A DNA stretch of 64,000 bases from positions 2,464-66,463 of the forward strand of contig JAFUCE010000049.1 of NCBI GenBank assembly GCA_017459805.1. Direction: 5' to 3'. The position numbers were made by a program, and so were the translations under genes. This stretch comes from Eggerthellaceae bacterium (GTDB taxonomy: Bacteria > Actinomycetota > Coriobacteriia > Coriobacteriales > Eggerthellaceae). Numbering within the stretch: the first letter of the stretch is position 1; each line of letters begins with the position of its first letter. Positions 35,983 to 49,541 of this stretch are shown one piece after another. The notes beneath the pieces are model-generated. The model was not told the origin of the DNA, made no database searches, and saw nothing but the letters and a program-made list of their open reading frames with translations.

Positions 35983-36924
35983 CTAGCCTTGTGCCTGGTC
36001 GTCCTGGTTGCCGAAGGCGGCATTTTCTGCCACCAACATCTGTTGGAACATGGAACGGCTCTGGTTAAAGTCGCTTGGCAAAACAACGGTAGTAGCATTG
36101 CCGCGCTTGGCAAAGTCGGTCATCATTTCGGTCCACTGGGTGTAAAGGAAGAGCTCGTTCGCTTCCTGTTCAGACACGCCCGAACTTGCAATGGTGTCAA
36201 GCGATTCCTTGATGCCCTTCGCAATGGCAATACGCTGGGCAGCGATACCGTTACCCGTCTTTTCCATGGCTTCAGCTTCTGCCTGCGCTTCGGTTACGCG
36301 CTTAATTTTCGCAGCGTTAGCTAAGCTTTGGGCCGCCTGTTGCTGGCGCTGCGCGGCGTTGATGTCGTTCATGGACTGTTCGACATCCTTCGGCAGCTGG
36401 ATGCCTGTAATGAGGGTGGAAACCAAGGTCCAACCATAGCCTGCCATGGTCTGCGAAACCGTCGCGTTCACGTCGTTGGCAATGTTGTCCTTCTTTTCGA
36501 ACACTTCGTCGAGCGTGTAATTCGGTATGGACGAACGAAGGGCGTCGGCGAGGTAGTCGCGCATCTGTTCAATAGGCTGGGCCAGCATATAGTAGCTGCG
36601 ATAAATGCCCGATTCCTGCGGTGCGTTGCCCCAATTGTAGTCCACGTGGTACTGCGCCGAAACGTCCAGCACGATGGTCACGTTGTCCGACGTCTTTGCG
36701 TCAATCTGAAAGCCCTCCTTCATGGTACGCAGGGACACACGCGTTACCTTGCGGTCGATGAAGGGAATCTTGGCACGCCAGCCAGGGTTTGCGATGCGAT
36801 GGAACTTACCCAGGCGCTCAATGATAATAGCCTCCTGTTGGCGCACGATAAAGAAGATGCTCCTGCCGAAAAACAGCAAGAACAAGATAATCAGAATGAG
36901 AAACGTAAGTATTCCGCCAATCAT
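35983..36924 (-). CDS. SPFH/band-7 (stomatin/prohibitin-like) membrane protein
   Basis: N-terminal TM helix, then FIVRQQEAIIIERLGKFHRIANPGWRAKIPFIDR... and an Ala/Gln-rich coiled region. RBS AAGGAAA. Confidence 0.9.
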   Translation of the reverse strand: MIGGILTFLILIILFLLFFGRSIFFIVRQQEAIIIERLGKFHRIANPGWRAKIPFIDRKVTRVSLRTMKEGFQIDAKTSDNVTIVLDVSAQYHVDYNWGNAPQESGIYRSYYMLAQPIEQMRDYLADALRSSIPNYTLDEVFEKKDNIANDVNATVSQTMAGYGWTLVSTLITGIQLPKDVEQSMNDINAAQRQQQAAQSLANAAKIKRVTEAQAEAEAMEKTGNGIAAQRIAIAKGIKESLDTIASSGVSEQEANELFLYTQWTEMMTDFAKRGNATTVVLPSDFNQSRSMFQQMLVAENAAFGNQDDQAQG

Positions 36925-37036
36925 GCGTTTTCCTTTCCTTTTGCTTACTCATATAGCATAGCGTACTTCGCACTTTTCCTTGATGCCTTCACCAATCTGT
37001 TACACGAAATGAACGCGGCAAAATGAAACGCGAGCT

Positions 37037-37717
37037 TTATGCCGGTAAGCAGGACTCGACCACCGCTTCAAGCAGGGCCGCGTGAAAGAGCAGGTGGGCA
37101 TTGGTGCTGGCTTTGCTGATAGCCTGCGCTATACCGAAGGCAGTATCGGCCAAGTGCATGTTCACGAACGAGTTGCGCAGACTAATCCAATCGTGTGCAC
37201 TTGCTGCATCCTGGCCTTTCCACGCCTGGTATTCAGCTGCCGTAACGTAGGCTGCGTAATCGAGCTCGCACACTATATGGTCGGCTGGCTCATGCTTTCC
37301 CTGCTGTACCCGCAAACCAAGATCACGAAAAAGCGCATCCACCACAGCGCGCTCGCTTTGGCGCGCGGCAAGCGACCCGCCACTTTGCACCCAGCGAGTG
37401 CCAACGAGCGGAATAATGCGGGGCATGGAATAAAAGAGTCGCGTATGTTCCACGCGCAGGCTATGAGCACGGCTTTCAGCGTCTTGCATTGCTGCATCGT
37501 TAAAGCGCAAGGCAGCGTCAAACAAGCTGTCGGATTCGAGGGCCACCAGTTCAGACAGGTCAATGGCCTGCAGTAAAAACGACTGTGAGGTCAGCCATCT
37601 CGCCCGTTCATGGGTGGGGTAAGAAAATGCGTGTGCAAGCAAAAGGAAGAGGTGCGCCAAGGCATCCGTTCGCGACGTGGCCTGTGCATCAAGTGAAAGA
37701 GTGCGGGCATGTTCCAC
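37037..37717 (-). CDS. TorD/DmsD-family redox-enzyme maturation chaperone (copy 1)
   Basis: GTG start preceded by GGAGGAG. ALAHLFLLLAHAFSYP..., ...EPADHIVCELDYAAYV is the typical TorD-family signature. Confidence 0.7.
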   Translation of the reverse strand: MEHARTLSLDAQATSRTDALAHLFLLLAHAFSYPTHERARWLTSQSFLLQAIDLSELVALESDSLFDAALRFNDAAMQDAESRAHSLRVEHTRLFYSMPRIIPLVGTRWVQSGGSLAARQSERAVVDALFRDLGLRVQQGKHEPADHIVCELDYAAYVTAAEYQAWKGQDAASAHDWISLRNSFVNMHLADTAFGIAQAISKASTNAHLLFHAALLEAVVESCLPA

Positions 37718-37759
37718 GAAACTCCTCCTCTTTTGCAGACGCGCATTCCCTGCGAAGCC

Positions 37760-38590
37760 TTAGGCAAACAAGTACAAACAGCTTTCGATGGCAGCCACCA
37801 AGGTTTCGCGCTGCTCCGCCCCAACGCGTTCAAAAGCTTGTAAAATCTTAGCGCGCAAACGGTCCAGAATCAACGCAGCGCGGTCCCTGCCCTCTTCAGT
37901 AATGGTTACCTCTACTGCGCGGCGAACAAGATGCTTTTCTTCCAGCACATCAAGGACCGAAGCCGCTATACTTCCTCCCGCAGAAACCCCAAGACGTCTT
38001 CGGATCGCTTCTTCGCTTAAACCCTGGGGAAATACACGCAGAGCGCAGAGCACAACAAATTCCGACACCGACATGTCAAGACGCGTGCACTCCTGGACTA
38101 AGTACTGGTTCGCAAAACAAAGGATGCGCAAAGGGTAGCTGGGGATAATACCGGCAGCCACCCGGGATGGGTCCTGTGCCTGGAGGGCGTGAAGCTGGGC
38201 AACGAATTGTTCAAAGCGCGCTTCAGTAATGCGTGCCGTGCTATCTACCAGGGAAAACGCAAAAGCTTCATCTATGGCGTTGATGCGGTTGTGCCCTTTG
38301 AGCGTGGCATGGATAGCAAACTTGCGGCGGTCTTGTTCCAGGCGCCTGCGTTCGACCAATTCCTTTTCTTCCAGAAGCGCAATCGAATGGTCGCAATTGC
38401 CCCAAAGCAGCCCGTAGGATTCTTGGACACCCTGCAAGGAAAAACCCTGGGGCATTTCTGCTATTTCGGTCAGCAGCGCATATTCGAGGGGGCCCATGTC
38501 GCCTATATGCAGGCATACCGCTTCAATGCTGGTATACAAATAATGCAGCACGATATAACTTTTATAATCGTCAAGAACTGGTTCGCCCAT
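37760..38590 (-). CDS. transcriptional regulator with two tandem MarR-like winged-helix domains
   Basis: First wHTH ...LLEEKELVERRRLEQDRRKFAIHATLKGH. Second ...LDVLEEKHLVRRAVEVTITEEGRD. 276 aa. Confidence 0.6.
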   Translation of the reverse strand: MGEPVLDDYKSYIVLHYLYTSIEAVCLHIGDMGPLEYALLTEIAEMPQGFSLQGVQESYGLLWGNCDHSIALLEEKELVERRRLEQDRRKFAIHATLKGHNRINAIDEAFAFSLVDSTARITEARFEQFVAQLHALQAQDPSRVAAGIIPSYPLRILCFANQYLVQECTRLDMSVSEFVVLCALRVFPQGLSEEAIRRRLGVSAGGSIAASVLDVLEEKHLVRRAVEVTITEEGRDRAALILDRLRAKILQAFERVGAEQRETLVAAIESCLYLFA

Positions 38591-38644
38591 GTAAAGCCTT
38601 TGGTCTTTGTACTTGTTATTGTAGCAATTCGGCGGAGGAAAACC

Positions 38645-39961
38645 TTAGGCATGCAACCAGGTATACATTTGATTGCGAATCCGCCCCGCAACTTTTTTAG
38701 CATCGGGTTCGTTTGCACACAGTATGCAAAGGTCCCCCGTTCCTTCACGCGCGGGGAGCCCACAGCGTTTGCACGCATGCGCGGGCCACTGCATGCAAAC
38801 TTGTTCATCAAAGGGCTGTTCAAGATTTTGATAGTCTCGCGACAAGGCGTGCGAAGGGCAGGCCTCAATGCACAAGCCACAATTGGTGCAGCGCCCTGGC
38901 GTATGGCCATAGGTAAACACTCCATCCTTAAGATCATGTTGAATGGTTCCCGTCGGACAAAGCTGCATGCACACTCCGCATGCCTTACAAAGACCTTCAT
39001 CGACCGTTTGCTTTGGCCACGGGAAATGCCCGGGATGATTCGGCTTGTTGGAACGCCACAACTCTTCAAGACGCATGCGCCATAAAGGAACATGTCGACG
39101 CTTTGCCTGCAGTTTCAAGGATGCACTTGCGCGACGTCGACGTTCTGCTTCACGCTTGCGGCGTCGCCCATGAAAGAGGGCACGAACCGACGACTTGATA
39201 GTGTCGGACAGGTCGGAAGAGTGAAGTGCGTCAGACACAGCCGTGGAATTGGATGAGTCGGAGGAGCTGGACGCGTCGGGTACATCTGATGCATCAAGTA
39301 TGTCGGACGCGTCGGGCGCGTCGGTTGCACGGGCGGTGCAGGATTGTTGTTCGCCTGGTTGGAGACCTTCAGCCAAAGCGCCTACAGCGGCAGCATCCCC
39401 TTCATCTTCAGACAAAAACAGCGGACTGCTTTCACGCAGGTTGGCTGCCCGCCCCCAGTCCGCCAATAAAGCAGCCGCTATCTGTTCGTTGCACTGCAGC
39501 GTTGGCCACACCCGTCCATAGAGCTGGCATTCCTTGCAACGATCAACCACAAGCACGCATTGCCGAGAAAAGGCCATTTCCGCCAGAGCGCCTGGCGTAA
39601 TTGCCGCCAAGCAGGCCCCCAGCTGATAGTCCTGGCCAGCATCCATAACCTCCGCATCCCCATAAGGCATAAAACAACGAAGTCGCAAGGGGTTGATATG
39701 TTCCACGCGTCCCAGCAGCTTCCGTTCGCTAAAGCGCGGTGAAGAAAAGGCATCCAGGGGGCATGCCGAAAGGCACTGACCGCAGTTCACGCAATTGTCG
39801 AGATTAAGCTGAGGGATTGGCTCCTGGCTGTCAAAGAAAATCGAGTCGGAAGGACAGGAGTCGGCGCACAAGCTGCATTCAGCCCACACGCTGCGCACAT
39901 GCAAACAGCGGCTCGCATCAAAGCTGATTTCAATACCGATGGCTCGGTCGCCTTTTGCCAC
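38645..39961 (-). CDS. cytoplasmic polyferredoxin (multiple 4Fe-4S motifs) with an internal Asp/Ser/Ala low-complexity insert
   Basis: GTG start preceded by GGGAG and no signal peptide. CxxCxxCxxxCP motifs: CVNCGQCLSACP, CKACGVCMQLCP, CTNCGLCIEACP. Also CSLCADSCP, a CKECQ cluster and a C-terminal CKRC...CILC. The insert reads DAPDASDILDASDVPDASSSSDSSNS. Confidence 0.8.
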   Translation of the reverse strand: MAKGDRAIGIEISFDASRCLHVRSVWAECSLCADSCPSDSIFFDSQEPIPQLNLDNCVNCGQCLSACPLDAFSSPRFSERKLLGRVEHINPLRLRCFMPYGDAEVMDAGQDYQLGACLAAITPGALAEMAFSRQCVLVVDRCKECQLYGRVWPTLQCNEQIAAALLADWGRAANLRESSPLFLSEDEGDAAAVGALAEGLQPGEQQSCTARATDAPDASDILDASDVPDASSSSDSSNSTAVSDALHSSDLSDTIKSSVRALFHGRRRKREAERRRRASASLKLQAKRRHVPLWRMRLEELWRSNKPNHPGHFPWPKQTVDEGLCKACGVCMQLCPTGTIQHDLKDGVFTYGHTPGRCTNCGLCIEACPSHALSRDYQNLEQPFDEQVCMQWPAHACKRCGLPAREGTGDLCILCANEPDAKKVAGRIRNQMYTWLHA

Positions 39962-40040
39962 AAGCGGCTCCCATTCACGTCTGACAAGCGCGCTCTCTAT
40001 TATCTAGCAAACTGAGCTTTTGCAAAAGGCTTTTTAGATA

Positions 40041-40667
40041 CTAAAACTCGTTCAGAAAAACACCCATGAGTGCCGCAAGGGCCCGGTAGTATGGTGTCTG
40101 AGCTTCGCGCTGCACGTCCTCGCAAAAGCCCGGTGCCCACTTCAGCATGTGGTCGTCCATAAAGTCGCCCAACAGTTCAATATTGTCCTTACCCATTTCA
40201 GCAAGATATTCAGGGCCGTTGGCCAAGAAGGCCGCAAAGTCACATTCGTTTTCAATGTAGTCGATGCAGTCGTTGTATTGCTGCTGGCGCTTTACCCCAC
40301 ATTCACGCATGAAGTCAGCAACTTCGTTGGTGTAGCGGTTAATCATTCGAACCGTGTCGCGGCCTTCGGCGCGGAAACGCCAGAGGCCTTCGGTGTTGGT
40401 TACCCGCGGCTTGTCACCCATATACATGTGCGCCCAGTCGATACGCAATTCATGGAGAACTTCTTCGGCATCGCGCCCGCGGTATTCCTGCATCGTGGTA
40501 AGAAAGCTGTCGATGGCATCGTCGGGCAAGGAAAGGGCACGCCAGGTGGTCGCCATGTCGTCTGCCAAGGTTCCTTCGACTATTACCTTTACTATTTGTT
40601 GAGTAGCGGGAGTAAAAGCAACCGAAAACAGTTTGAACATATTACCAAGATAACTTGCTTCAGACAC
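40041..40667 (-). CDS. TorD/DmsD-family redox-enzyme maturation chaperone (copy 2)
   Basis: Track ORF 40041-40691 (TTG start). The preferred start is GTG 40665-40667, preceded by AGGAAGGAAG. YLGNMFKLFSVAFTPAT..., ...CDFAAFLANGPEYL... Confidence 0.7.
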   Translation of the reverse strand: MSEASYLGNMFKLFSVAFTPATQQIVKVIVEGTLADDMATTWRALSLPDDAIDSFLTTMQEYRGRDAEEVLHELRIDWAHMYMGDKPRVTNTEGLWRFRAEGRDTVRMINRYTNEVADFMRECGVKRQQQYNDCIDYIENECDFAAFLANGPEYLAEMGKDNIELLGDFMDDHMLKWAPGFCEDVQREAQTPYYRALAALMGVFLNEF

Positions 40668-40691
40668 GTTTCTCTTCCTTCCTATTTGCAA

Positions 40692-40721
40692 CGGGGGTGC
40701 CAGGACTCCGTGGCACCCCCG
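40692..40721 (-). promoter_or_regulatory. strong intercistronic stem-loop inside the molybdoenzyme operon
   Basis: CGGGGGTGCCA-N8-TGGCACCCCCG is an 11-bp GC-rich stem between the 4Fe-4S subunit gene and the TorD-like gene. No U-tract follows it. Confidence 0.6.
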
Positions 40722-40781
40722 TGCTTAATACATCCTATCTGGGATTGGGAGGTGTACCAGATAGGCATATTATACAAGTAG

Positions 40782-41405
40782 CTACTTCAGGTAGTACATG
40801 TTCGGGCCAGTACCCTCTTCGGGCAGCATGACTTCGTATTCGCGTTCAGCCAAAAGCTTGGACACTTCGCTTTCGGGGTCGTCCAAGTCGCCAAACACAC
40901 GAGCACGAGCCGGGCAACCTTCAACACAAGCAGGAACGTCGCCGTCCTTCACGCGGAAGTAGCACATGATGCACTTCTCGACCGTGTTTTCCTTGTGGTC
41001 GGGTGCCTGCTGGTGGCCAACGGGCCAGTCCAGAGCCGGAATCGGGTCGCCTTCAATATAGGTGCGCACACCAGTGTAGGGGCAGGCCTCAATACAGCTG
41101 CGGCAGCCAATGCATTCGTCCACGTTCTGCATGACGATGCCTGTTTCTTCGTCCTTGTAGGTTGCGCCTGTCGGACAAATGGCAGTACAAGCAGGAGTGT
41201 CGCAATGCATGCAGTGGAAGGGGGTGTAGCTCATCGTGTTTGAGCCGTACTCGCCCGCAGGAGTGTTGGGGCTGTCGCCACCCACGGTAAGAACCGTGTT
41301 CCACCAGGCCTGGTCAGGAAGGTTGTTTTCAAGCTTGCAAGCTACAGAGCAGCTCCAGCAGCCAATGCAACGCTTGGTGTCGGTAACAATTGCATACTTA
41401 GTCAT
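40782..41405 (-). CDS. 4Fe-4S electron-transfer subunit of a DMSO-reductase-family enzyme (DmsB-like, four-cluster)
   Basis: CIGCWSCSVACK, CMHCDTPACTAICP, CIGCRSCIEACP, CIMC...CVEGCP. RBS GGAGGAG. Starts 3 nt after the catalytic-subunit stop. Confidence 0.9.
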   Translation of the reverse strand: MTKYAIVTDTKRCIGCWSCSVACKLENNLPDQAWWNTVLTVGGDSPNTPAGEYGSNTMSYTPFHCMHCDTPACTAICPTGATYKDEETGIVMQNVDECIGCRSCIEACPYTGVRTYIEGDPIPALDWPVGHQQAPDHKENTVEKCIMCYFRVKDGDVPACVEGCPARARVFGDLDDPESEVSKLLAEREYEVMLPEEGTGPNMYYLK

Positions 41406-41408
41406 GGC

Positions 41409-43997
41409 TTACTCCTCCCCTTCACTGACGGCAACTACCTCGAAGGGCTCCTGTCCGCCTTCACCGTTCCAAGGCTCAATCTTGATACGGTTGTCGAAGA
41501 AGGAGCAGTTAACGGCATACGGGTCAGCGTAGTCGGTCGTAATAGCACCCTGGCTACCGAACTTGGTTTCGTTCTCGGCATAGCCCTTGTTGTATACCGT
41601 CATGCCAGGACGCATACCAGTGTGGTAGACGCACTTCATCACGCACTGACCGACGGTGGAGGTAATCAAGATGTCCTGACCGTCTTCCACGCCAGCTGCC
41701 TTTGCGTCATCCGGGTGAACGAACAGGGTCGGTTCAGGCATAACGTCGCGCGCCCAGTCCTTCATGAAGTGGGTCATGTGTACACGGCTGGGGTTACGCC
41801 ATGAAATCATAACCAGCGGGAACTCGGCAGCATATTCGCTATGTTCGCCAGCAATCTTGTTCTCGAAATAGGTGGGCATCAATTCACGTTCGCGGATGGA
41901 TTCGGTATCCAAGCTGGAAGGAGTACGCGGTGCGGGAGTGTCGACGTAGAACATCAGCTTGCCCGTTTCGGTAATGAAGTTCTTGAAGTCTTTGTTACCA
42001 ATGTAGGGCTTTTCAGAAACGTAGCGCATTTCCTTGTTTTCGCGCAGGGTTTCAAGCGTGATGCCGTTTTCAACAGCAGCAGGCACGTCGTCAAAGGTGC
42101 CCTTCCACCAATCTTCGTCTGTTACGTCGCAAACAGCGTCTTCAACACCCAAGTACTTGGAAAGGAAGCGAGCGATTTCGGAGTCAATCTTTGCCTCATA
42201 CATGGGCTCGATGCACTTCTCGGAAATACGCACGTTCTTTTCGTGTGACAGCGGAACAACGTCTTCGTACTCGTAAATGTCGGCAGCTGGGAGGACGATG
42301 TCGGCATAACGAGCGGAGTCGGTCATGAACGGATCGACAACAACGTACTGTTCAAGCTTGTCCAGGAATTCCTTCTTGGTACGGTTGGAGTTCACCGAAC
42401 CACCGATAAGACCACCATGGGTCTGAATCATGGTCTTCAGCGGATACGGTTCACCATTCAGTTCGCCCGAAGACATGATGTTGCAAGCATCGAGCCAGGT
42501 GATGGTGCTAAATGCCTTACCGTTGGAGGGAGCGGTAAGGGCATGACCGAAGAAGTTACCATACATGGAGTCGAAACCACCAACGCTGCGGCCGGGCTCG
42601 CCAAAGTTACCCGTCATAGCAATGAGGGCGGTCAAGCCATAGGCGGCATGCAGGCCGTTTTCGTAAGCACCAGTACCAAAGTTGATGTAGTGAGCAACTT
42701 TGTTCTTGGGCTGCAGCAGGTCATAGAGGTAGTTGAAGTCGTCTTCAGAAATACCCGTGACTTCCATAACCTTGTCGAGCGTCCATTCCTGAACATGTTC
42801 TTTGAACTTGTCCCAGGCGGTCGTGTAGGCTTCGTCGGGGCAGGTCCAAGCAGGATCTTCGCATTCGTCGAAGCAGACGGGCTTGCCTTCTTTTTCGCTC
42901 CATACCATGATGGGATCGATTTCGGTTGGCAGACCAGTTACCCAGAACGGAGGACCTTCATGCAGGGGCTCGTCCTGGTATTCGCTGCCGCGCAGATACA
43001 TGCCATCTTCGTTCTTAATGAGGAACGGAGCGCAGGTGTTGTTCAGCACGAAGTCGGCCGCGAAAGTTTCGTCGTCCATGAACTTCTTGATAAGACCCAG
43101 ATACAGTGCCGTGTCGCAACCGGGCTTGACGGTAATCCACTTGTCAGCCTTGGCAACCGTGGGGCTAAACACGGGGTCGACGCAAACGAGCTTCGCGCCA
43201 GCAGCCTGTGCATTAGCAATGTGCTGCCACATCTGAATCTGTGCGCCAACGGGGTTGGCACCCATCAGCAGAATATAGTCGGAGTTGACAAAGTCCTGCG
43301 GTTCGGACTGGTCGAACCACTGGATGCCACCACGGGTAAGACCGGTGTTGGTAGCAGCGTCGAAAGAATAATGCCAGTAGGTGCAGCCGGTTGCATTGTA
43401 GAGGCGCATGGTAAGACCAGCATTGCCGTTCAATGAACCCTGCGAGCCGCAGCCCTGGTAGTAGGTGTTAGCCAAGGGGCCAAACTCTTCTTCAACTTGC
43501 TTCCACTTGGTGCCAATCAATTCGCCGGCTTCTTCCCACGTAATACGCTCCCATTCGTCCTTACCACGGTTTTCGGGGTGCGGATCTTCCAGGCTATACG
43601 TGGCACGCTTCATCGGGTACTGCACGCGAGCGTCTGAATACGTACGCTGAATACGTGCACGACCCTTCAGGCATGTACGATAGTCATAGTCTGGCTTGGG
43701 GAGCATGTGGCATACGTTACCATCGCGCGTAAAAATGCGGTACTGGCAGAAAGAGCAGCTCCAGCTGCAGGTGCAGTAGAATTCCTGCTCTTCGACTTCG
43801 GGCTTCATGGCGACTTCGCTGCTTGCTTCAAGGTTAGCCATCGAGCTGCTTGCTTCTTCCGCTGCAGAAGCGCTTGCTTCAGCTTCAGCACTGCTGCTTG
43901 CTGCTTGCGGGGAAGAACAAGCTGCCAAGGTGGCCAACGACGTGCTTGCCAAGCCGGCAGCAGCCATGAATCCACGACGGGTCAGTTTTTGTCCCAT
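41409..43997 (-). CDS. molybdopterin (bis-MGD) oxidoreductase catalytic subunit, Tat-exported and probably lipid-anchored
   Basis: The twin-arginine signal MGQKLTRRGFMAAAGLASTSLATLAAC ends in a lipobox-like LAAC. An S/A/E-rich linker follows, then an N-terminal Cys cluster CTCSWSCSFC...C. 862 aa with DMSO-reductase-family architecture. RBS GAGGAGGAAG. Confidence 0.9.
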   Translation of the reverse strand: MGQKLTRRGFMAAAGLASTSLATLAACSSPQAASSSAEAEASASAAEEASSSMANLEASSEVAMKPEVEEQEFYCTCSWSCSFCQYRIFTRDGNVCHMLPKPDYDYRTCLKGRARIQRTYSDARVQYPMKRATYSLEDPHPENRGKDEWERITWEEAGELIGTKWKQVEEEFGPLANTYYQGCGSQGSLNGNAGLTMRLYNATGCTYWHYSFDAATNTGLTRGGIQWFDQSEPQDFVNSDYILLMGANPVGAQIQMWQHIANAQAAGAKLVCVDPVFSPTVAKADKWITVKPGCDTALYLGLIKKFMDDETFAADFVLNNTCAPFLIKNEDGMYLRGSEYQDEPLHEGPPFWVTGLPTEIDPIMVWSEKEGKPVCFDECEDPAWTCPDEAYTTAWDKFKEHVQEWTLDKVMEVTGISEDDFNYLYDLLQPKNKVAHYINFGTGAYENGLHAAYGLTALIAMTGNFGEPGRSVGGFDSMYGNFFGHALTAPSNGKAFSTITWLDACNIMSSGELNGEPYPLKTMIQTHGGLIGGSVNSNRTKKEFLDKLEQYVVVDPFMTDSARYADIVLPAADIYEYEDVVPLSHEKNVRISEKCIEPMYEAKIDSEIARFLSKYLGVEDAVCDVTDEDWWKGTFDDVPAAVENGITLETLRENKEMRYVSEKPYIGNKDFKNFITETGKLMFYVDTPAPRTPSSLDTESIRERELMPTYFENKIAGEHSEYAAEFPLVMISWRNPSRVHMTHFMKDWARDVMPEPTLFVHPDDAKAAGVEDGQDILITSTVGQCVMKCVYHTGMRPGMTVYNKGYAENETKFGSQGAITTDYADPYAVNCSFFDNRIKIEPWNGEGGQEPFEVVAVSEGEE

Positions 43998-44152
43998 ACT
44001 TCCTCCTCTTTCTTAATTGCCCGTGGCAGAAACGCTCCATCATCCAGGTGGCGCCCACGGGCAACTCGTCAAAGCGGATTATACGCGCGTAAGAAAGGCG
44101 CTGCTTGCCAGGGCTTGAAAAACAGCTATTTTTGTTTCATTTTTGATATATT

Positions 44153-44791
44153 TTAGAGGCGGAGGGACAAATGCTTGGCAATAGCTTTACCCTTTGCCGT
44201 CAAAGACACCATACGCACCCGGGCATCGCCCTTGCCGGTAGCCAACTGCACACTCCCCTTGCGCTCAAGAGCTGCCACCGCTTGTGAAACTCTGTTTTGC
44301 GCAAGATTGCTTGCCTCAATGAGCTCCGAAAGCTTCAGGGGCTTTTTGGCCGCAAGCAACAGCACATAAATGCGCACAGCTGAATCCGAAAACTTGCGTT
44401 CGCCCGCGTAATGTTCTGCGCTGCGACACGCTGCCTGCAGAGCAATGTAGTCCTGCACTAAATCATCGACGGCTTTCCGTCCAAACCGTCGCCGTATTTC
44501 AAAGAGCACGTTTTCACCGTGGTTGGACAAGCGATAATGCGAAACGCGATAGTCGCTGCGCTGCACCGCTTCCTGGGCAAGGCCGGCCGCAGACAGACGC
44601 GCGAGAATACGCGATATCCGCGGGCGTCCCAGATGAAGTGCTTCAGATAGTCCACTTGCCGTATTGGCCCTGCCTTGCTTGTCTTGCCCAAGGTAGGCAA
44701 GAAGCATGATGTCGTCGACGTGTAAAGATCCGCCCCGCACAAAAGCATGCACGGCATCGATGCTCGTAAAAAAATGACTTAAATCTTTCAT
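44153..44791 (-). CDS. transcriptional regulator with two tandem MarR-like winged-helix domains
   Basis: First wHTH ...SGLSEALHLGRPRISRILARLSAAGL... Second ...LSELIEASNLAQNRVSQAVAALERKGSVQLATGKGDARVRMVSLTAKG. The start overlaps the upstream stop (ATGA). Confidence 0.6.
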   Translation of the reverse strand: MKDLSHFFTSIDAVHAFVRGGSLHVDDIMLLAYLGQDKQGRANTASGLSEALHLGRPRISRILARLSAAGLAQEAVQRSDYRVSHYRLSNHGENVLFEIRRRFGRKAVDDLVQDYIALQAACRSAEHYAGERKFSDSAVRIYVLLLAAKKPLKLSELIEASNLAQNRVSQAVAALERKGSVQLATGKGDARVRMVSLTAKGKAIAKHLSLRL

Positions 44792-45462
44792 GACGTAGAC
44801 TGCACGTCCTTACGTTGACGCACCAAGCGGGCAATCGCGTAGACCACAAATACCACCGTGTAGACCACAAGGTTAAAACGCGCAGAACCGTTTCCTGCAA
44901 GCGCGCCCGAAGCCAGCAAAAGCACAATGTGGAAGTAGACGAGCCCGTAAAAAAGATACGACCATTTTTGAAGATTTTTCCAAGCGTGGGAGTCCATGCG
45001 CTTTTTCACAAAGCTAAATGATGTCACGCCCAGCACAAGGACAAGGGCAAACAGCACCAGCGATATGACGATAGATGCTGCAAGCGTAGGCCGCGTGCCC
45101 GGGTGAAGAATACGCGGCAGGAAGATGCCAATATGGACCGCGATATGCATGGCAACTAAAAGACAAGCGGCAATGGAAAGTTCTGCACGAACGCTTTGGA
45201 ACCGGGCGCGAATGGCAGAGTCGTGTGGCAAAACGCCAATAAACATGACTATGGTAAACAAAGCCATCGCAAGCGTACCGCGGCGCATAAGCAAAACTCC
45301 CATACGCGCCGCCGGCCCAGGAATTACCGAAAAGGCGCCCACGGCAAAAAGGATATCGACGGCAATAACGATGGCGTATAAAACCCAGGGGTATTTATGA
45401 ATAGCAGGTGCGGCCACCCAACTCAGCAATACACAAACGAGAAGTGTTACCAGAAACTCCAT
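44788..45462 (-). CDS. six-TM membrane protein, ferric-reductase-like/YedZ(MsrQ)-like (tentative)
   Basis: 224 aa with six hydrophobic helices. Intramembrane His residues (LLVAMHIAVHIG, GLVYFHIVLL) are placed as in di-heme b ferric-reductase-type domains. Confidence 0.5.
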   Translation of the reverse strand: MEFLVTLLVCVLLSWVAAPAIHKYPWVLYAIVIAVDILFAVGAFSVIPGPAARMGVLLMRRGTLAMALFTIVMFIGVLPHDSAIRARFQSVRAELSIAACLLVAMHIAVHIGIFLPRILHPGTRPTLAASIVISLVLFALVLVLGVTSFSFVKKRMDSHAWKNLQKWSYLFYGLVYFHIVLLLASGALAGNGSARFNLVVYTVVFVVYAIARLVRQRKDVQSTS

Positions 45463-45606
45463 GCCTGTATTGTAAACATCTACGCAGAGAAGCTTGGCGT
45501 AGCCAATTAAAATACTTTCATTTTTGATATTTCCTGTCCACGAAATACGTGCGCGCTCAGGCGTGATGGGCCAGCAAACTTCCCGCGCGCGAAATGACAG
45601 GCTGGC

Positions 45607-47919
45607 TTATTTCCAGAAGCGCAGCCGCAGGGCGTTTGACACAACGAACAAAGACGACAGGCTCATGGCAGCAGCTGCAATCATGGGGTTAAGTGTAATG
45701 CCGAACGGCGTTAGCACACCAGCTGCGACGGGAATACAAATGACGTTATAGAACAGCGCCCAGAACAGCTTCTGCTTGATGTTGCGCATGGTGGCCCGGG
45801 ACAAATCAATCGCCGCAGGGACACCTTGCAAGTCGTCGCTTACCAGCACCATGTCGGCAGCTTCAATCGCAACGTCGGTTCCACCACCAACCGCAATACC
45901 AACATCGGCGCGGGCAAGAGCGGGCGCATCGTTGATGCCGTCACCCACCATGGCCGTGGCGCCCACTTCACATAGACGCCGCAGCTGCTCTTCTTTGTCC
46001 TGCGGCAACACGTTCGCAATGACGTGGTCCACGCCCACCTGCGCGGCAATGGCAGATGCCGTTTGTTCGTTGTCGCCCGTAAGCATTGTGCTTTCAATAC
46101 CCATGGCCTTAAGCTGCGCAATAGCGTTTGCGCTGCTTTCCTTGGGCGTGTCTGCCAGCGCGATAAGACCCAGCGCCGTGTTTTCTTCTGCGAAGAACAG
46201 CGGCGTTGCACCCGCGGCGGCACATTTATCCGCATCGGCCTGGAGCGCCTGGATGTCCACTCCGCGCTCGCGCATGAGTACGGCATTACCCGCCAAATAG
46301 TGCATGCCTTCAATTTCAATATCAAGGCCCCCACCAGGGATTTGCGTAAAGCTTTCGGGAAGAATGCTGGCCGCAGCTTCCGCCTGTTCTGGTGCATGCG
46401 CGCGCCCATAGTCAACGATAGCACGCGCCAGGGGATGTTCGGAGCGCGCTTCCACCGCCAGGGCTACCAGTAAAAGCTGCTCGTTATCGATACCCGGTGC
46501 GGGAAGCACAGCACTGACCTCGGGGCTGCCCTGCGTAATGGTTCCCGTCTTGTCGAAAACCACGTGCTGCGTTGCGTGCGCCGTTTCAAGCGCTTCGGCC
46601 GACTTAATCAGAATGCCCTTGCGTGCACCTGCCCCCATGCCCACCATAATGGCGGTTGGCGTTGCCAGACCAAGGGCGCAGGGACAGCTGATAACGAGCA
46701 CGGTAATCGCATGATTGATGGCCGCCTCGAAGCCACCGCCCAGGGCAAGCCACGCTATAAAGGTAAGGAGCGCAATGCCTATAACCACTGGCACAAAAAT
46801 GCCTGCAATCTTGTCGGCCACGCGTTCAATGGGCGCTTTGGTACTGGTGGCATCGTCAACCAGGCGGATAATCTGGGCAAGGGCCGTGTCGTTACCCACC
46901 CGACTTGCTTCCATCCGCAGCCAGCCCGACGTATTGACCGTGGCGCCCGTAAGCGCATCGCCCGCTTGCTTTTCAACAGGGATGCTCTCACCCGTCAGCG
47001 CGCTTTCGTCCACGCTGGCCACGCCATCCAGCACAAAGCCATCGCAGGGAACAGCCGCGCCTGCGCGCACGATGCACACATCGCCCACGCGCACTTCCGC
47101 GGTTGGCACTTCCACTTCTTCCCCATTGCGTTCAACAATCGCTGTCTGGGGCGAAAGGTCAACCAGGGCTTCTATGGCACCGGTGGTCTTGCCCTTGGCA
47201 CGCGCCTCGAAATACTTTCCCACCGTTATGAGCGCCAAAATCATGCCAGCCGAATCGAAGTACAAGTTCATAACGGCTTGATGCGCCGCTTCCATGTTGC
47301 CAGCATGAAGCGCGGCCTGCATACTAAACACGCCCCATGCGCTATAGAGTATGGACGCCGTCGCGCCCAGGGCAACAAGCGCGTCCATATTGGGCGCACC
47401 ATGAATGAGGCTCTTGAACCCGCGTGTAAAGTAGCTGCGGTTTACCACCACAATGGGAATAAGCAGGACCAGCTGCGCCACCACGAAAGCCTGCATATGC
47501 GCGTGTTCATGCAAGTTGAAGGGCGTTGGCCAGCCAAACATATGGCCCATGCAAAGATAAAAAAGTGGCACGCCAAACACGAGCGAAATAATAAGGCGGT
47601 TGCGCATCTTGCGCGCTTCTTCTTCACGCCGCGCGCTTTGCGTATGGGCCGCCGCTACAAAGTCGGCGCCAAGCTCACTTGCTCCGTCGGCGCTGGCACC
47701 CGCGCGCAGCTGGGCACCGTAACCCGCCTTGTTAACCGCTTCGCTGATGGCTTCGGCAACCTGCGCAGCTTCAACACCTTCGGCCAACTCAACTTCCATG
47801 CTGTTTTTCAGCAGGTTCACATTGGCGCTTGCCACACCATCAACCGCGCTGCTCACCTGCTGCACACGTGCCGAACAAGCAGCACAGGTCATTCCACTTA
47901 TGTCAAAAGTTTGCTTCAT
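45607..47919 (-). CDS. copA: copper-translocating P1B-type ATPase
   Basis: N-terminal HMA domain GMTCAACSARV, transmembrane CPC motif (SCPCALGLATP), DKTGTIT phosphorylation site, and GDGINDAPAL. Confidence 0.93.
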   Translation of the reverse strand: MKQTFDISGMTCAACSARVQQVSSAVDGVASANVNLLKNSMEVELAEGVEAAQVAEAISEAVNKAGYGAQLRAGASADGASELGADFVAAAHTQSARREEEARKMRNRLIISLVFGVPLFYLCMGHMFGWPTPFNLHEHAHMQAFVVAQLVLLIPIVVVNRSYFTRGFKSLIHGAPNMDALVALGATASILYSAWGVFSMQAALHAGNMEAAHQAVMNLYFDSAGMILALITVGKYFEARAKGKTTGAIEALVDLSPQTAIVERNGEEVEVPTAEVRVGDVCIVRAGAAVPCDGFVLDGVASVDESALTGESIPVEKQAGDALTGATVNTSGWLRMEASRVGNDTALAQIIRLVDDATSTKAPIERVADKIAGIFVPVVIGIALLTFIAWLALGGGFEAAINHAITVLVISCPCALGLATPTAIMVGMGAGARKGILIKSAEALETAHATQHVVFDKTGTITQGSPEVSAVLPAPGIDNEQLLLVALAVEARSEHPLARAIVDYGRAHAPEQAEAAASILPESFTQIPGGGLDIEIEGMHYLAGNAVLMRERGVDIQALQADADKCAAAGATPLFFAEENTALGLIALADTPKESSANAIAQLKAMGIESTMLTGDNEQTASAIAAQVGVDHVIANVLPQDKEEQLRRLCEVGATAMVGDGINDAPALARADVGIAVGGGTDVAIEAADMVLVSDDLQGVPAAIDLSRATMRNIKQKLFWALFYNVICIPVAAGVLTPFGITLNPMIAAAAMSLSSLFVVSNALRLRFWK

Positions 47920-48020: not shown

Positions 48021-49469
48021 CTAGAGCCCCGCCTTTTCGACTGCTTTTTCAGCCTGCTCTTTCGTGAAACCTTCCTCGAGGAGCATCTCGATCAAGCGAT
48101 CGCGGGAAAGGGGCATGTACTCCAGCCAATCTGCCGCAGCTGCATCGGCCATTTCGTCCCAGTTGGCTCCGCACTTTTCAACAGCGTATGCTGCCTGTTC
48201 TTTCGTGAAGCCTTCCCACTCAAGCTGTTCCTGTAAACCAGTAGGCCCGAAAGGCATGCTCTCAAGATACGACTTGGCCATACTAAGCGCTTGCTCGTTC
48301 CAGTCTGCGCCGCAATTATCGGCCGCATAGACCGCATCTTCGTGGCTAAACTTTTCATACTCGAGTTGGCGAATCACTCCTTCGTAAGAAAAGCCGTTAT
48401 ATGCAAGGTACTCTTTTGCTCTGTTCAGGGCATTTTCGCGGCTCGTTTCAGTTGAAGCCGCACCGCCTGCTGCATCCTTCGCTTCGCCGTCCTTGCTATC
48501 CTGGGTGGCTGCATTATCCTGGGTGGCTGCATTATCCTGGGTGGCCGCATCCTTGGCGTTGTTGTCAGCGCCGGCAGAAGCACCAGTGCCGCTGCCCGTT
48601 GTGGCGCCTGTTTCCCTCTCCATTTCTTCCTTGAGTTCATCGAGCTGTTCCTGGAGCCTGCCCGTTTCATCTTCGGCGGCCAGTTCTTCTAGGGCACCGA
48701 TGAATTCGTCAGGGTTTTCTGCCACGGTGTTAACCGCCATAAGCGAAGTGACTACTAAAACGATGCCAACAAGAATCGCAAGAATAGACAGGACGAGGCC
48801 AATAATACTGGTAATCTTGCCCGCTTTAGCACGACCGTTTTCAGGGTCGGCCGCAAGTACGGGACGCGATTTCACGATACCAACAATAGAGAGAATCAAA
48901 CCCACCAGGCCTGCAAAGATGATGGAGCAAATACCCAAAACCAAAGGAGTGGTACCTGGGTTAGACCCGTTTGCATATTGCGCCGTACCAGGGGCAACGC
49001 CATAGGGCTGGTTAGGGTCGTAGGGTTGCTGCGCATACTGCTGGTTGGGGTCGTAAGGTTGCTGCGCATATTGCTGGTTGGGGTCGTAAGACTGCTGCGC
49101 ATATTGCTGGTTTGGGTCGTAAGACTGCTGCGCGTAAGTTTGATTAGTGTCGTAAAATGTTTGCTGAACTGGTTGCGCATAAGCCTGCTGGTTCGGATCA
49201 GGCGTTGGTTGCGCATAGTCCTGCGTGCCTGCATCGTACGGTGCCTCCTGCGGCATTTGTACTGTCGCGTCCATGGAAGCAGGTGTTTCGCTTACTGCCG
49301 GTTTTGCAGGCGCTGAAAATGGCTGCACCTGTTCGTTGGCGTCACTGAAGGGCTGCGAAGCGTCGGCCTGGGCATTTCCCGAAAGCGCCGACTGCAAGTT
49401 GCCCAAAACACTACCTGCAGAAGTTTCCTCAGATTCGGGGTTTTCTGGTGTTAACTTATCTTCTGGCAT
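48021..49469 (-). CDS. membrane protein with Q/Y/P-rich cytoplasmic repeats and three extracellular Ltp-family repeats
   Basis: N-terminal (QQYAQQ[SP]YDPN)x4, two TM helices, QDNAAT x3, then three Ltp-like modules (ALNRAKEYLAYNGFSYEGVIRQLEYEKFSHEDAVYAADNCGADW; ...EGFTKEQAAYAVEKCGANW; ...EGFTKEQAEKAVEKAG). Confidence 0.75.
   Translation of the reverse strand: MPEDKLTPENPESEETSAGSVLGNLQSALSGNAQADASQPFSDANEQVQPFSAPAKPAVSETPASMDATVQMPQEAPYDAGTQDYAQPTPDPNQQAYAQPVQQTFYDTNQTYAQQSYDPNQQYAQQSYDPNQQYAQQPYDPNQQYAQQPYDPNQPYGVAPGTAQYANGSNPGTTPLVLGICSIIFAGLVGLILSIVGIVKSRPVLAADPENGRAKAGKITSIIGLVLSILAILVGIVLVVTSLMAVNTVAENPDEFIGALEELAAEDETGRLQEQLDELKEEMERETGATTGSGTGASAGADNNAKDAATQDNAATQDNAATQDSKDGEAKDAAGGAASTETSRENALNRAKEYLAYNGFSYEGVIRQLEYEKFSHEDAVYAADNCGADWNEQALSMAKSYLESMPFGPTGLQEQLEWEGFTKEQAAYAVEKCGANWDEMADAAAADWLEYMPLSRDRLIEMLLEEGFTKEQAEKAVEKAGL
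49007..49138 (-). repeat. 33-nt in-frame tandem repeat x4 (encodes QQYAQQ[S/P]YDPN)
   Basis: gctggtt(a/g)gggtcgta(g/a)g(g/a)(t/c)tgctgcgcata(c/t)t units at 49007, 49040, 49073 and 49106. Confidence 0.9.
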
Positions 49470-49541
49470 CTTGTTTCCTTTTCTCCTTTGCCATTACATC
49501 TCTGTTGCAACTATTAAAACATCATACAGCTTCTCGCGCTG

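Follow-up and report, generated by a model that had tools for sequence, protein, structure and literature searches.

An MsrQ-like membrane protein as the probable electron-entry partner of a predicted lipoprotein molybdoenzyme in Eggerthellaceae

Bacteria of the family Eggerthellaceae carry tens of molybdenum (Mo) reductases per genome, which act on drugs, dietary polyphenols, neurotransmitters and steroids. The question raised by the gene cluster described here is how electrons reach such an enzyme when none of the classical membrane anchors is encoded beside it. The cluster occupies positions 37037-45462 of a 64-kb stretch of DNA from an Eggerthellaceae bacterium (assembly GCA_017459805.1, contig JAFUCE010000049.1), hereafter called the window. 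It encodes an 862-amino-acid (aa) catalytic Mo subunit (A), a 207-aa iron-sulfur (FeS) subunit (B) and, upstream of both, a 224-aa membrane protein followed by a 212-aa regulator. The original prediction, made from the sequence, held that lipid anchoring of the catalytic subunit replaces a membrane subunit. The analysis reported here points to another answer: the 224-aa protein, which resembles MsrQ and ferric-reductase domains, is probably the missing membrane partner of the enzyme. In the explanation that we favour, with a confidence somewhat better than even, the AB enzyme is exported, tethered by lipid and fed by this MsrQ-like heme protein instead of a classical anchor.

Linkage of the MsrQ-like family to molybdoenzyme operons

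Homology to subunit A was used to retrieve 80 genome loci. Homologues of the 224-aa protein were encoded in 12 of these A-selected loci, usually in the order A-B-(TorD)-membrane gene; NrfD was found in 35 and DmsC in 6. When contigs were selected by homologues of the membrane protein, three of the four showed the A-B-(TorD)-membrane operon, and the homologue on the fourth stood beside a flavin reductase. A metagenome scan was seeded solely with the membrane-protein profile, and loci were counted if they extended for at least 4.5 kb on both sides. In every one of these long loci (26/26), the genes of an Mo subunit A and an FeS subunit B shared the strand of the membrane gene and lay immediately upstream of it; metagenome loci without them were mostly short contigs. 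Elsewhere, the homologues stand at the end of A-B-(TorD) operons and lack an attached regulator; the gene of the window instead lies upstream of A. The membrane gene is likewise upstream of A in L006, the locus of a metagenome-assembled genome (MAG), where no gene of the 212-aa regulator type was detected between the two.

The two operons of the cluster share an upstream element. The 15-mer ATATCAAAAATGAAA occurs in exactly two exact copies in the 64 kb, upstream of the membrane-gene/regulator operon and of the Mo-enzyme operon (chance expectation: 0.16 matches in 64 kb, with two mismatches allowed). The corresponding -10-like boxes are TACAAT at 45469-45474 for the membrane-gene operon and TATAAT at 44078-44083 for the Mo operon. 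In L006, the sole other orthologous locus with the membrane gene, the diverged form ATATCGGTAATGAAA is found within a 29-nucleotide (nt) identical stretch upstream of both genes. In orthologues without the membrane gene, a similar element precedes a TATAAT box by about 50 nt, 5' of the Mo gene. An activator site is suggested by the position of ATATCAAAAATGAAA, which lies upstream of the -35 region.

The type of membrane partner was also compared with the presence of a lipobox on subunit A. Lipoboxes were counted in loci with a recognisable twin-arginine (RR) motif, the pattern being the twin-arginine motif, a hydrophobic stretch and then [LVI][ASTVI][GAS]C. Among the genome loci, 12 with an MsrQ-like partner had a lipobox and 1 had none, and the corresponding numbers for loci with NrfD only were 4 and 22 (Fisher p ~5e-6 for the contrast between these two groups). 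Loci without any partner in cis, the orthologues of the present enzyme included, were divided (14 with, 10 without). In the metagenome set, the lipobox was present on 16 of 17 distinct signal peptides. Because the lipobox co-occurs with the MsrQ-like partner, lipidation appears to accompany an alternative membrane subunit, not to replace one. The proposal that lipid anchoring stands in for a membrane subunit is thus not supported, on three counts: the membrane family is a near-obligate operon partner, the two promoters have an element in common, and the lipobox tracks the MsrQ-like partner. On the simplest reading, an AB pair seated on a large NrfD or DmsC protein needs no tether, and an AB pair that relies on a small heme protein is held at the membrane by its lipid. 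A lipobox on the signal for twin-arginine translocation (Tat) is therefore suggested as a sequence rule for predicting the type of partner, its presence pointing to an MsrQ-like protein and its absence to NrfD.

A separate small cytochrome was seen among the related loci: a DUF4405/cytochrome b561-like gene (~158 aa) was present in 10 of the 80, in one case about 450 nt downstream of the NrfD gene (L010:14828-15304). DUF4405 proteins bind heme b (PMC11334425), and the complexes that bear them may combine NrfD with a small cytochrome.

The cluster and its proteins

The eight open reading frames (ORFs) of the cluster, all on the minus strand, were recovered from the ORF list and translations where the original prediction had placed them and with the features it had described. 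The features are listed below in the direction of transcription.

45516-45530 (-): upstream element ATATCAAAAATGAAA, copy 1, 41 nt before the TACAAT -10-like box of the membrane-gene/regulator operon
44788-45462 (-): 224-aa MsrQ/ferric-reductase-domain-like membrane protein, proposed heme b electron-entry subunit
44153-44791 (-): 212-aa regulator containing two winged-helix (MarR/TrmB-like) domains, its gene translationally coupled to that of the membrane protein by ATGA
44135-44149 (-): upstream element ATATCAAAAATGAAA, copy 2, 51 nt before the TATAAT box of the Mo-enzyme operon
44017-44064 (-): hairpin in the 5' leader of the Mo gene, inverted repeat TTGCCCGTGG / CCACGGGCAA
41409-43997 (-): 862-aa catalytic subunit of the Mo-bis(pyranopterin guanine dinucleotide) (bisPGD) type, with Tat signal, lipobox, Ser/Ala/Glu (S/A/E) linker, FS0 motif and Asp213
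40782-41405 (-): 207-aa electron-transfer subunit with four [4Fe-4S] motifs
40041-40691 (-): TorD/DmsD-like chaperone 1 (216 aa)
38645-39961 (-): 438-aa cytoplasmic polyferredoxin
37760-38590 (-): 276-aa regulator, SarA/Rot/MarR-like winged helix-turn-helix (wHTH) in the N-terminal half
37037-37717 (-): TorD/NarJ-like chaperone 2 (226 aa)

The A and B genes are separated by 3 nt (41406-41408), and the membrane gene overlaps the 212-aa regulator gene in ATGA, both as originally described. The absence of an NrfD/DmsC-like ORF was borne out for the whole window by inspection of the ORFs with multiple transmembrane (TM) segments; NapGH-like, NrfD and DmsC genes were sought across the 64 kb and were not found, and no gene for a heme b gamma subunit of the NarI or EbdC type was present in it. 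The remaining multi-TM ORFs of the 64 kb encode a major facilitator superfamily transporter, a copper ATPase and a SpoIIE/HAMP protein.

The cluster had been called an orphan, which is misleading. A seven-gene core (regulator, Mo subunit, FeS subunit, TorD, polyferredoxin, regulator, TorD) is kept at 50-92% identity in Slackia, Adlercreutzia, Denitrobacterium and related MAGs, and relatives of the Mo subunit (46-92% identical) occur in many gut and rumen assemblies, the closest named one being that of Slackia heliotrinireducens (86% identity). The order of the core is identical in S. heliotrinireducens (L083), Adlercreutzia equolifaciens (L004), Denitrobacterium detoxificans (L170) and an Eggerthellaceae MAG (L003); the same core genes were found in A. 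caecimuris (L007) and in L008, in which the 276-aa-type regulator was not resolved. A gene of the 212-aa regulator type stands directly 5' of the Mo gene in the orthologous loci, and in each genome the core is flanked by unrelated housekeeping genes. Among these loci, the membrane gene was present only in the window organism and in MAG L006. The conservation of the core across Slackia, Adlercreutzia and Denitrobacterium suggests a common acceptor, worth screening for. A second, very divergent A-B pair (25% identity) was observed a few kb upstream of the orthologous cluster in A. caecimuris (L007:2262-5432) and in L008 (L008:3040-6143); no recognisable membrane gene adjoins these pairs, and in L008 only a short ORF with three TM segments lies just after the pair.

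For the 224-aa membrane protein, six TM helices had been proposed, and seven were seen in the AlphaFold2 (AF2) model (mean predicted local distance difference test score, pLDDT, 89). The top fold matches in the PDB (Foldseek) were STEAP2, STEAP1, SpNOX and NOX5, with probabilities of 0.98-1.0 for the STEAP and SpNOX chains and 0.72-0.77 for NOX5, and TM-scores of 0.39-0.57 across all four. A sequence search of the PDB with the membrane-protein profile gave nothing meaningful. In NCBIfam, the protein matched the MamZ C-terminal domain weakly (E = 3e-7). The ferric-reductase domain PF01794 was matched by 27 of 38 homologues (best E = 1e-8), one of which is labelled 'YedYZ heme-binding membrane subunit' by its source.

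The proposed resemblance to YedZ and ferric reductases was upheld, with conserved histidines at the heme-ligand positions of the third and fifth core helices: across the 38 sequences H106 and H178 are invariant, as are Q165, R92, W161 and Y169, and no other His is. In a profile alignment to E. coli MsrQ, the counterparts of H106 and H178 are H91 and H164, and Q165 is paired with H151. The fifth core helix thus has Gln165 in place of its second His, and only one heme site is conserved. By these residues, the protein is predicted to bind heme b at H106/H178, and the positive-inside rule, with the helix positions of the residues, would place this site in the outer half of the membrane.

The subfamily is compact: of 1.84 billion representatives, its profile matches 526 at E <= 1e-30 and 1,199 at E <= 1e-3. 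Its longer members (P0252, P0262, P0272, P0283, P0288) have one more TM helix and a C-terminal extracytoplasmic FMN_bind domain with an [ST]GAT flavinylation motif, and because of these fused domains the subfamily is read as an outward electron-transfer module. A short member, L089, adjoins a FAD_binding_2 flavin reductase, and the module may serve flavin reductases as well as Mo reductases. In L087 (L087:1718-4074), an MsrQ-like-A-B-TorD operon is divergent to NuoF-like (NADH_4Fe-4S) and NuoE-like (2Fe-2S_thioredx) genes, an arrangement that hints at a cytoplasmic electron donor in some members.

The 862-aa subunit belongs to the Mo/W-bisPGD superfamily, with 113.8 bits for PF00384 (cut-off 24) and 55.1 bits for PF01568 (cut-off 26.8). 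Its N-terminus, MGQKLTRRGFMAAAGLASTSLATLAAC, leads into a linker rich in Ser, Ala and Glu. The Tat lipoprotein signal of the original prediction was readily traced in the sequence: the motif LTRRGFM (RR at residues 7-8), the lipobox LAAC with Cys27 and the S/A/E linker of about 45 residues. About 27 of 36 orthologues retain RR at residues 7-8 and, near residue 30, the Cys of a lipobox, and by its motifs the subunit is predicted to be a Tat-exported lipoprotein. The FS0 motif reads C77-x3-C81-x2-C84-x24-C109, all four Cys being invariant; its C-x3-C-x2-C spacing is one residue shorter than in paralogues, and PF04879 was not matched.

The best PDB sequence match was the perchlorate reductase subunit PcrA (327 bits, nearly full length). 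The AF2 model of the Mo subunit (pLDDT 79) matched PcrA, EbdA (ethylbenzene dehydrogenase) and NxrA first, followed by DorA, TorA and MtsZ, and more than 180 PDB chains of the bisPGD family in all. As the earlier work had asked for the Mo ligand to be identified by alignment, the invariant Asp213 was paired with PcrA Asp170 in the profile alignment, the latter being the Mo ligand of that structure. The D213 column is Asp in 74 of 79 related subunits and Ser or Cys in DmsA-like Bacillaceae outliers, as expected of a ligand column, and for this reason it was taken as such; Asp213 is the predicted Mo ligand.

None of the curated family models (NCBIfam) reached its cut-off for the Mo subunit. TIGR03479 (type II alpha) gave 212 bits against a cut-off of 985 and TIGR02166 (DmsA/YnfE) 232 bits against 778; with Asp in the ligand column and no DmsC in the window, the enzyme is not assigned to DmsABC or YnfEFGH. 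The identities DmsA, TtrA, PsrA and ArrA were all rejected, every curated model being far under its cut-off. No close characterised orthologue was found, in agreement with the original prediction, and no literature on this orthologue, including any characterised S. heliotrinireducens enzyme, was found. The 207-aa subunit matches Fer4_11, has 16 Cys in four cluster motifs and no signal peptide, and is presumed to be co-exported with A. It scored 124 bits on TIGR03478 (type II beta, 3Fe-4S-containing; cut-off 481), and all 16 of its cluster Cys are present.

Both TorD-like proteins exceed the curated cut-off of PF02613 (TorD/NarJ, 22.2 bits): the 216-aa protein with 68.8 bits and the 226-aa protein with 46.2. 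They are 26% identical to each other, and a type II chaperone model was the best match for both. Chaperone 1, for which the public gene call starts 8 codons further in, is of the type seen in nearly all related A-B-D operons, and chaperone 2 is of the type that travels with the polyferredoxin.

The 438-aa polyferredoxin has multiple Fer4 domains and no predicted TM or hydrophobic segment. Its 24 invariant Cys make up four CxxCxxCxxxCP motifs and two further 4-Cys sites, distributed over two lobes that are joined by a hypervariable, acidic, low-complexity linker of a few to about 100 residues and then a basic segment. The 'DAPDASD' insert that had been pointed out does exist, as part of this linker; as a functional motif it was discarded, since the linker varies in length from a few to about 100 residues and has no conserved sequence. 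The NapF model TIGR00402 gave 41 bits (cut-off 102), and the protein is not classed as NapF. Full-length relatives lie between TorD-like genes in clusters of Bacillaceae and other Firmicutes that have an NrfD anchor (L033, L066, L068). Across loci, the polyferredoxin does not travel with the MsrQ-like gene, and the idea that they form an obligate pair was dropped for that reason. Because of its distribution with TorD-like genes, NrfD clusters included, the polyferredoxin is more likely a cytoplasmic assembly or maturation factor than part of a respiratory electron route, and the pair of polyferredoxin and TorD looks like a portable module for assembly. Experiments on the Dadh system showed its accessory genes for chaperones and ferredoxins to be indispensable, and those accessory ferredoxins are NapG/H-like and span the membrane (PMC11887054). 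The Firmicutes relatives carry an internal twin-arginine-like motif, [ST]RR[DE][LF][FL], just after the variable linker (L033:9402-10553, L066:11871-13016, L020:13617-14969, L077, L078), which is degenerate in the polyferredoxin of the window (residues about 256-275: SVRALFHGRRRKRE). This motif could be left over from fusion to a Tat-exported ferredoxin, or it could serve the adjacent TorD-like chaperone as a handle.

Both regulators had been described as double-wHTH proteins. This applies to the 212-aa protein, which has matches in both halves (MarR_2 40.7 bits, cut-off 27; TrmB 44.2 bits). The 276-aa protein falls just under the MarR-type cut-offs (24-25 bits against 24.6-27), and for its second wHTH the only match was to MarR_2 at E = 0.07; it is probably of MarR type, with a probable second wHTH in its C-terminal half. 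The two tandem-wHTH regulators are candidates for acting at ATATCAAAAATGAAA. The leader hairpin of the Mo gene is formed by the perfect 10-bp inverted repeat and lies just before a strong GAGGAGG ribosome-binding site; the leader RNA folds with -35.7 kcal/mol (z = -3.96), and the hairpins of orthologues differ in sequence. An Rfam scan of 36900-45700, which included the leader hairpin, gave no match to a molybdenum cofactor riboswitch or any other. In the membrane-gene promoter, only 6 nt separate the end of the TACAAT box from the ATG (45462-45474, minus strand), and the membrane-gene/regulator transcript may be leaderless.

Proposed electron route and competing explanations

The favoured explanation would make the cluster a substrate-inducible, outward-facing respiratory-type Mo-bisPGD reductase, working as follows. 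The Mo subunit would be assembled in the cytoplasm with the two TorD-like chaperones and the NapF-like polyferredoxin, and exported via Tat together with the four-cluster FeS subunit. The signal peptide would be cut at the lipobox and Cys27 lipidated, leaving the enzyme on the outer face of the membrane on its flexible S/A/E tether. Electrons would be supplied by the 224-aa protein, through a single heme b, bis-His-ligated by H106/H178 and located in the outer half of the membrane; the protein would itself be reduced by menaquinol or by a cytoplasmic flavin donor. From there they would pass through the four FeS clusters to FS0, the Asp213-ligated Mo centre and the acceptor. The two tandem winged-helix regulators would control both promoters via ATATCAAAAATGAAA.

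A broader proposal is put forward more tentatively, at a little less than even confidence. Eggerthellaceae would contain an unrecognised class of enzymes in which a single-heme MsrQ-type cytochrome b takes the place of NrfD, DmsC or NarI, and in which the catalytic subunit has co-evolved a lipid tether that keeps AB by its small partner in a cell without an outer membrane. The cluster of the window would be a member whose partner gene has moved upstream under the same promoter element, and the orthologues in other genera would share a partner encoded elsewhere.

Several observations weigh against an MsrQ-like electron route in this cluster. The membrane protein of the window has no Pfam match at E <= 0.01, PF01794 included, and its Foldseek E-values are weak (0.04-0.5). 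Its single conserved His pair does not make a full transmembrane two-heme wire, the inner heme ligands being absent. No membrane gene lies in cis in 32 of the 80 related loci, nor in the orthologous clusters of S. heliotrinireducens, Adlercreutzia and Denitrobacterium; since it is missing from the latter, the membrane gene is not a fixed part of this enzyme, and therefore in those species the partner is encoded elsewhere or a different route is used. For the Dadh system, deletion of the cis-encoded anchor gene dadhC had no effect in a heterologous host, and NapG/H-like membrane ferredoxins were essential (PMC11887054).

All the points on missing genes, and the Dadh results, count in favour of the original prediction that the lipid anchor replaces the membrane subunit, in an arrangement where electrons would come from a quinol dehydrogenase encoded elsewhere (for example NapGH-like or CymA-like) and the YedZ-like protein would be a neighbour without relation to the enzyme. 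ArrB is the best NCBIfam match of the FeS subunit, and ArrAB is not known to depend on an anchor of its own, which lends this arrangement further support. It is nevertheless considered unlikely. An unrelated neighbour does not fit a protein family found within A-B operons in all 26 long metagenome loci, nor a 15-mer that is common to both promoters in each of two diverged genomes; lipobox and MsrQ-like partner are positively correlated, and no NapGH-like gene was found in the 64 kb.

The polyferredoxin could instead be the physiological electron carrier, feeding either an enzyme that stays in the cytoplasm or, in the manner of the NAD-binding domains of NOX-like systems, the MsrQ-like protein from its cytoplasmic face. 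It has four canonical clusters and two extra Cys4 sites and shows strict conservation within the orthologue group, cytoplasmic donors of the NAD-binding or NuoF-like kind have been described for MsrQ-like systems (PMC8238504), and the NuoE/F-like genes of L087 stand beside an MsrQ-like-A-B operon. Such a role is held to be very unlikely, however, given that the polyferredoxin and the MsrQ-like gene do not co-occur, that a TorD-flanked polyferredoxin is also found in clusters with a quinol-oxidising NrfD anchor, that the conserved RR motif and lipobox of the Mo subunit argue for export, and that the membrane protein is without inner heme ligands. A chance that is, if anything, slimmer still is given to a sensing pair, in which the membrane protein would be a heme-based or redox sensor controlling the coupled wHTH regulator and not an electron-transfer subunit. 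The ATGA coupling of the two genes would suit such a pair, as would the unusual upstream position of the membrane gene relative to the common A-B-D-membrane order. Set against this, the homologues that end A-B-(TorD) operons have no regulator attached, the fused FMN_bind variants point to electron transfer, and in L006 the membrane gene is upstream of A with no 212-aa-type regulator detected between them.

Relation to characterised systems

The favoured enzyme, an exported and lipidated AB pair fed by an MsrQ-like protein, shares features with several known systems. The type II enzymes (PcrAB, 4ydd; ethylbenzene dehydrogenase; NxrA/NarG) gave the best sequence and fold matches and share the aligned Asp, the type II chaperone model and Tat export. 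The present enzyme differs from them in family scores far under the cut-offs, in its C-x3-C-x2-C FS0 spacing and in a 207-aa, 16-Cys beta subunit of PsrB/ArrB/NrfC type, the type II beta subunit being ~330 aa and 3Fe-4S-containing; it also lacks an EbdC/NarI-type heme subunit, and its catalytic subunit is a predicted lipoprotein. With PsrABC and DmsABC, which have NrfD or DmsC anchors, it has in common the exported A, the four-cluster B and a TorD/DmsD-type chaperone, and paralogous Eggerthellaceae loci do use NrfD or DmsC. Neither anchor is present here, where the proposed partner is a heme protein of the ferric-reductase-domain superfamily, and A carries the lipobox that is mostly absent from the NrfD-type paralogues.

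In E. coli MsrPQ (YedYZ), as would be the case here, an MsrQ-type heme b protein feeds an exported molybdoenzyme. The 224-aa protein shares with MsrQ the W-x3-(H/Q)-x3-Y-x8-H motif and the His of TM3, and differs in having Gln as the counterpart of His151 and an extra N-terminal helix, and in forming a distinct compact branch. MsrP is of the sulfite-oxidase family and without an FeS subunit, whereas the acceptor here would be the four-cluster subunit of a bisPGD enzyme. The MsrQ-like flavinylation-associated systems (Meheust et al. 2021, PMC8238504; Huang et al. 2024, PMC11334425) likewise include actinobacterial PF01794 cytochromes that lead to extracytoplasmic redox proteins, with FMN_bind fusions in the present subfamily. 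Their partners are flavinylated proteins, NAD-binding domains and iron uptake, and here they are Mo-A and FeS-B, with no ApbE or FMN_bind gene in the cluster; the words molybdopterin and Eggerthella do not occur in either paper.

The original prediction had associated the cluster with the catechol dehydroxylases. It is indeed an uncharacterised Eggerthellaceae cluster of the dimethyl sulfoxide-reductase family, and the link to catechol dehydroxylases proved loose, the closest Eggerthella and Gordonibacter proteins retrieved being about 29-34% identical to the Mo subunit. Dadh, Hcdh and Cadh come from the same bacterial family and have a Tat-exported A, a four-cluster B, a component described in the respective papers merely as 'membrane anchor', a TorD-like chaperone, accessory ferredoxins and substrate-specific adjoining regulators. 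Their catalytic subunit is larger, by ~330 residues in the case of E. lenta Hcdh (1193 aa; PMC11585353); Gp Hcdh has 770 aa. Their regulators are DadR/DadS (family in PMC9734109), unlike the MarR-like ones found here, and the DadhG/H ferredoxins are membrane-spanning and NapG/H-like, unlike the present polyferredoxin, which has no TM segment. A cytoplasmic polyferredoxin and a Tat-proofreading chaperone beside an exported molybdoenzyme are known from NapF and NapD, whose role is the one proposed for the 438-aa protein with the TorD-like proteins. The 438-aa protein is about three times larger than NapF and has two lobes, extra Cys4 sites and a variable linker, and the chaperones are of the TorD/NarJ type, not NapD.

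Each part of the cluster is of a known kind: bisPGD enzyme, four-cluster subunit, TorD chaperones, Tat lipoprotein and MsrQ-like cytochrome. No description of a lipidated bisPGD AB pair with an MsrQ/ferric-reductase-type partner, recurring across Eggerthellaceae, was found in the literature, and a search for work tying ferric-reductase or MsrQ-like proteins to Eggerthella molybdoenzymes returned nothing relevant. A large subset of the Mo reductases of this family appear to be lipoproteins with an MsrQ-like heme protein, not NrfD or DmsC, which would extend the MsrQ-type electron route from MsrP to bisPGD enzymes and is of relevance to the fields of molybdoenzymes and of gut Actinobacteria. For most such reductases, expression in standard hosts succeeded only once accessory genes had been added (PMC11887054), and in practice the present linkage indicates genes to co-express.

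Outside the cluster, two large low-complexity proteins rich in Gln, Pro and Ala are encoded at 48021-51695 (-), between the copper ATPase and purine genes. They have two and one predicted membrane-spanning segments, respectively, one of them carries three Ltp-type lipoprotein repeats, and the pair is apparently unrelated to the cluster.

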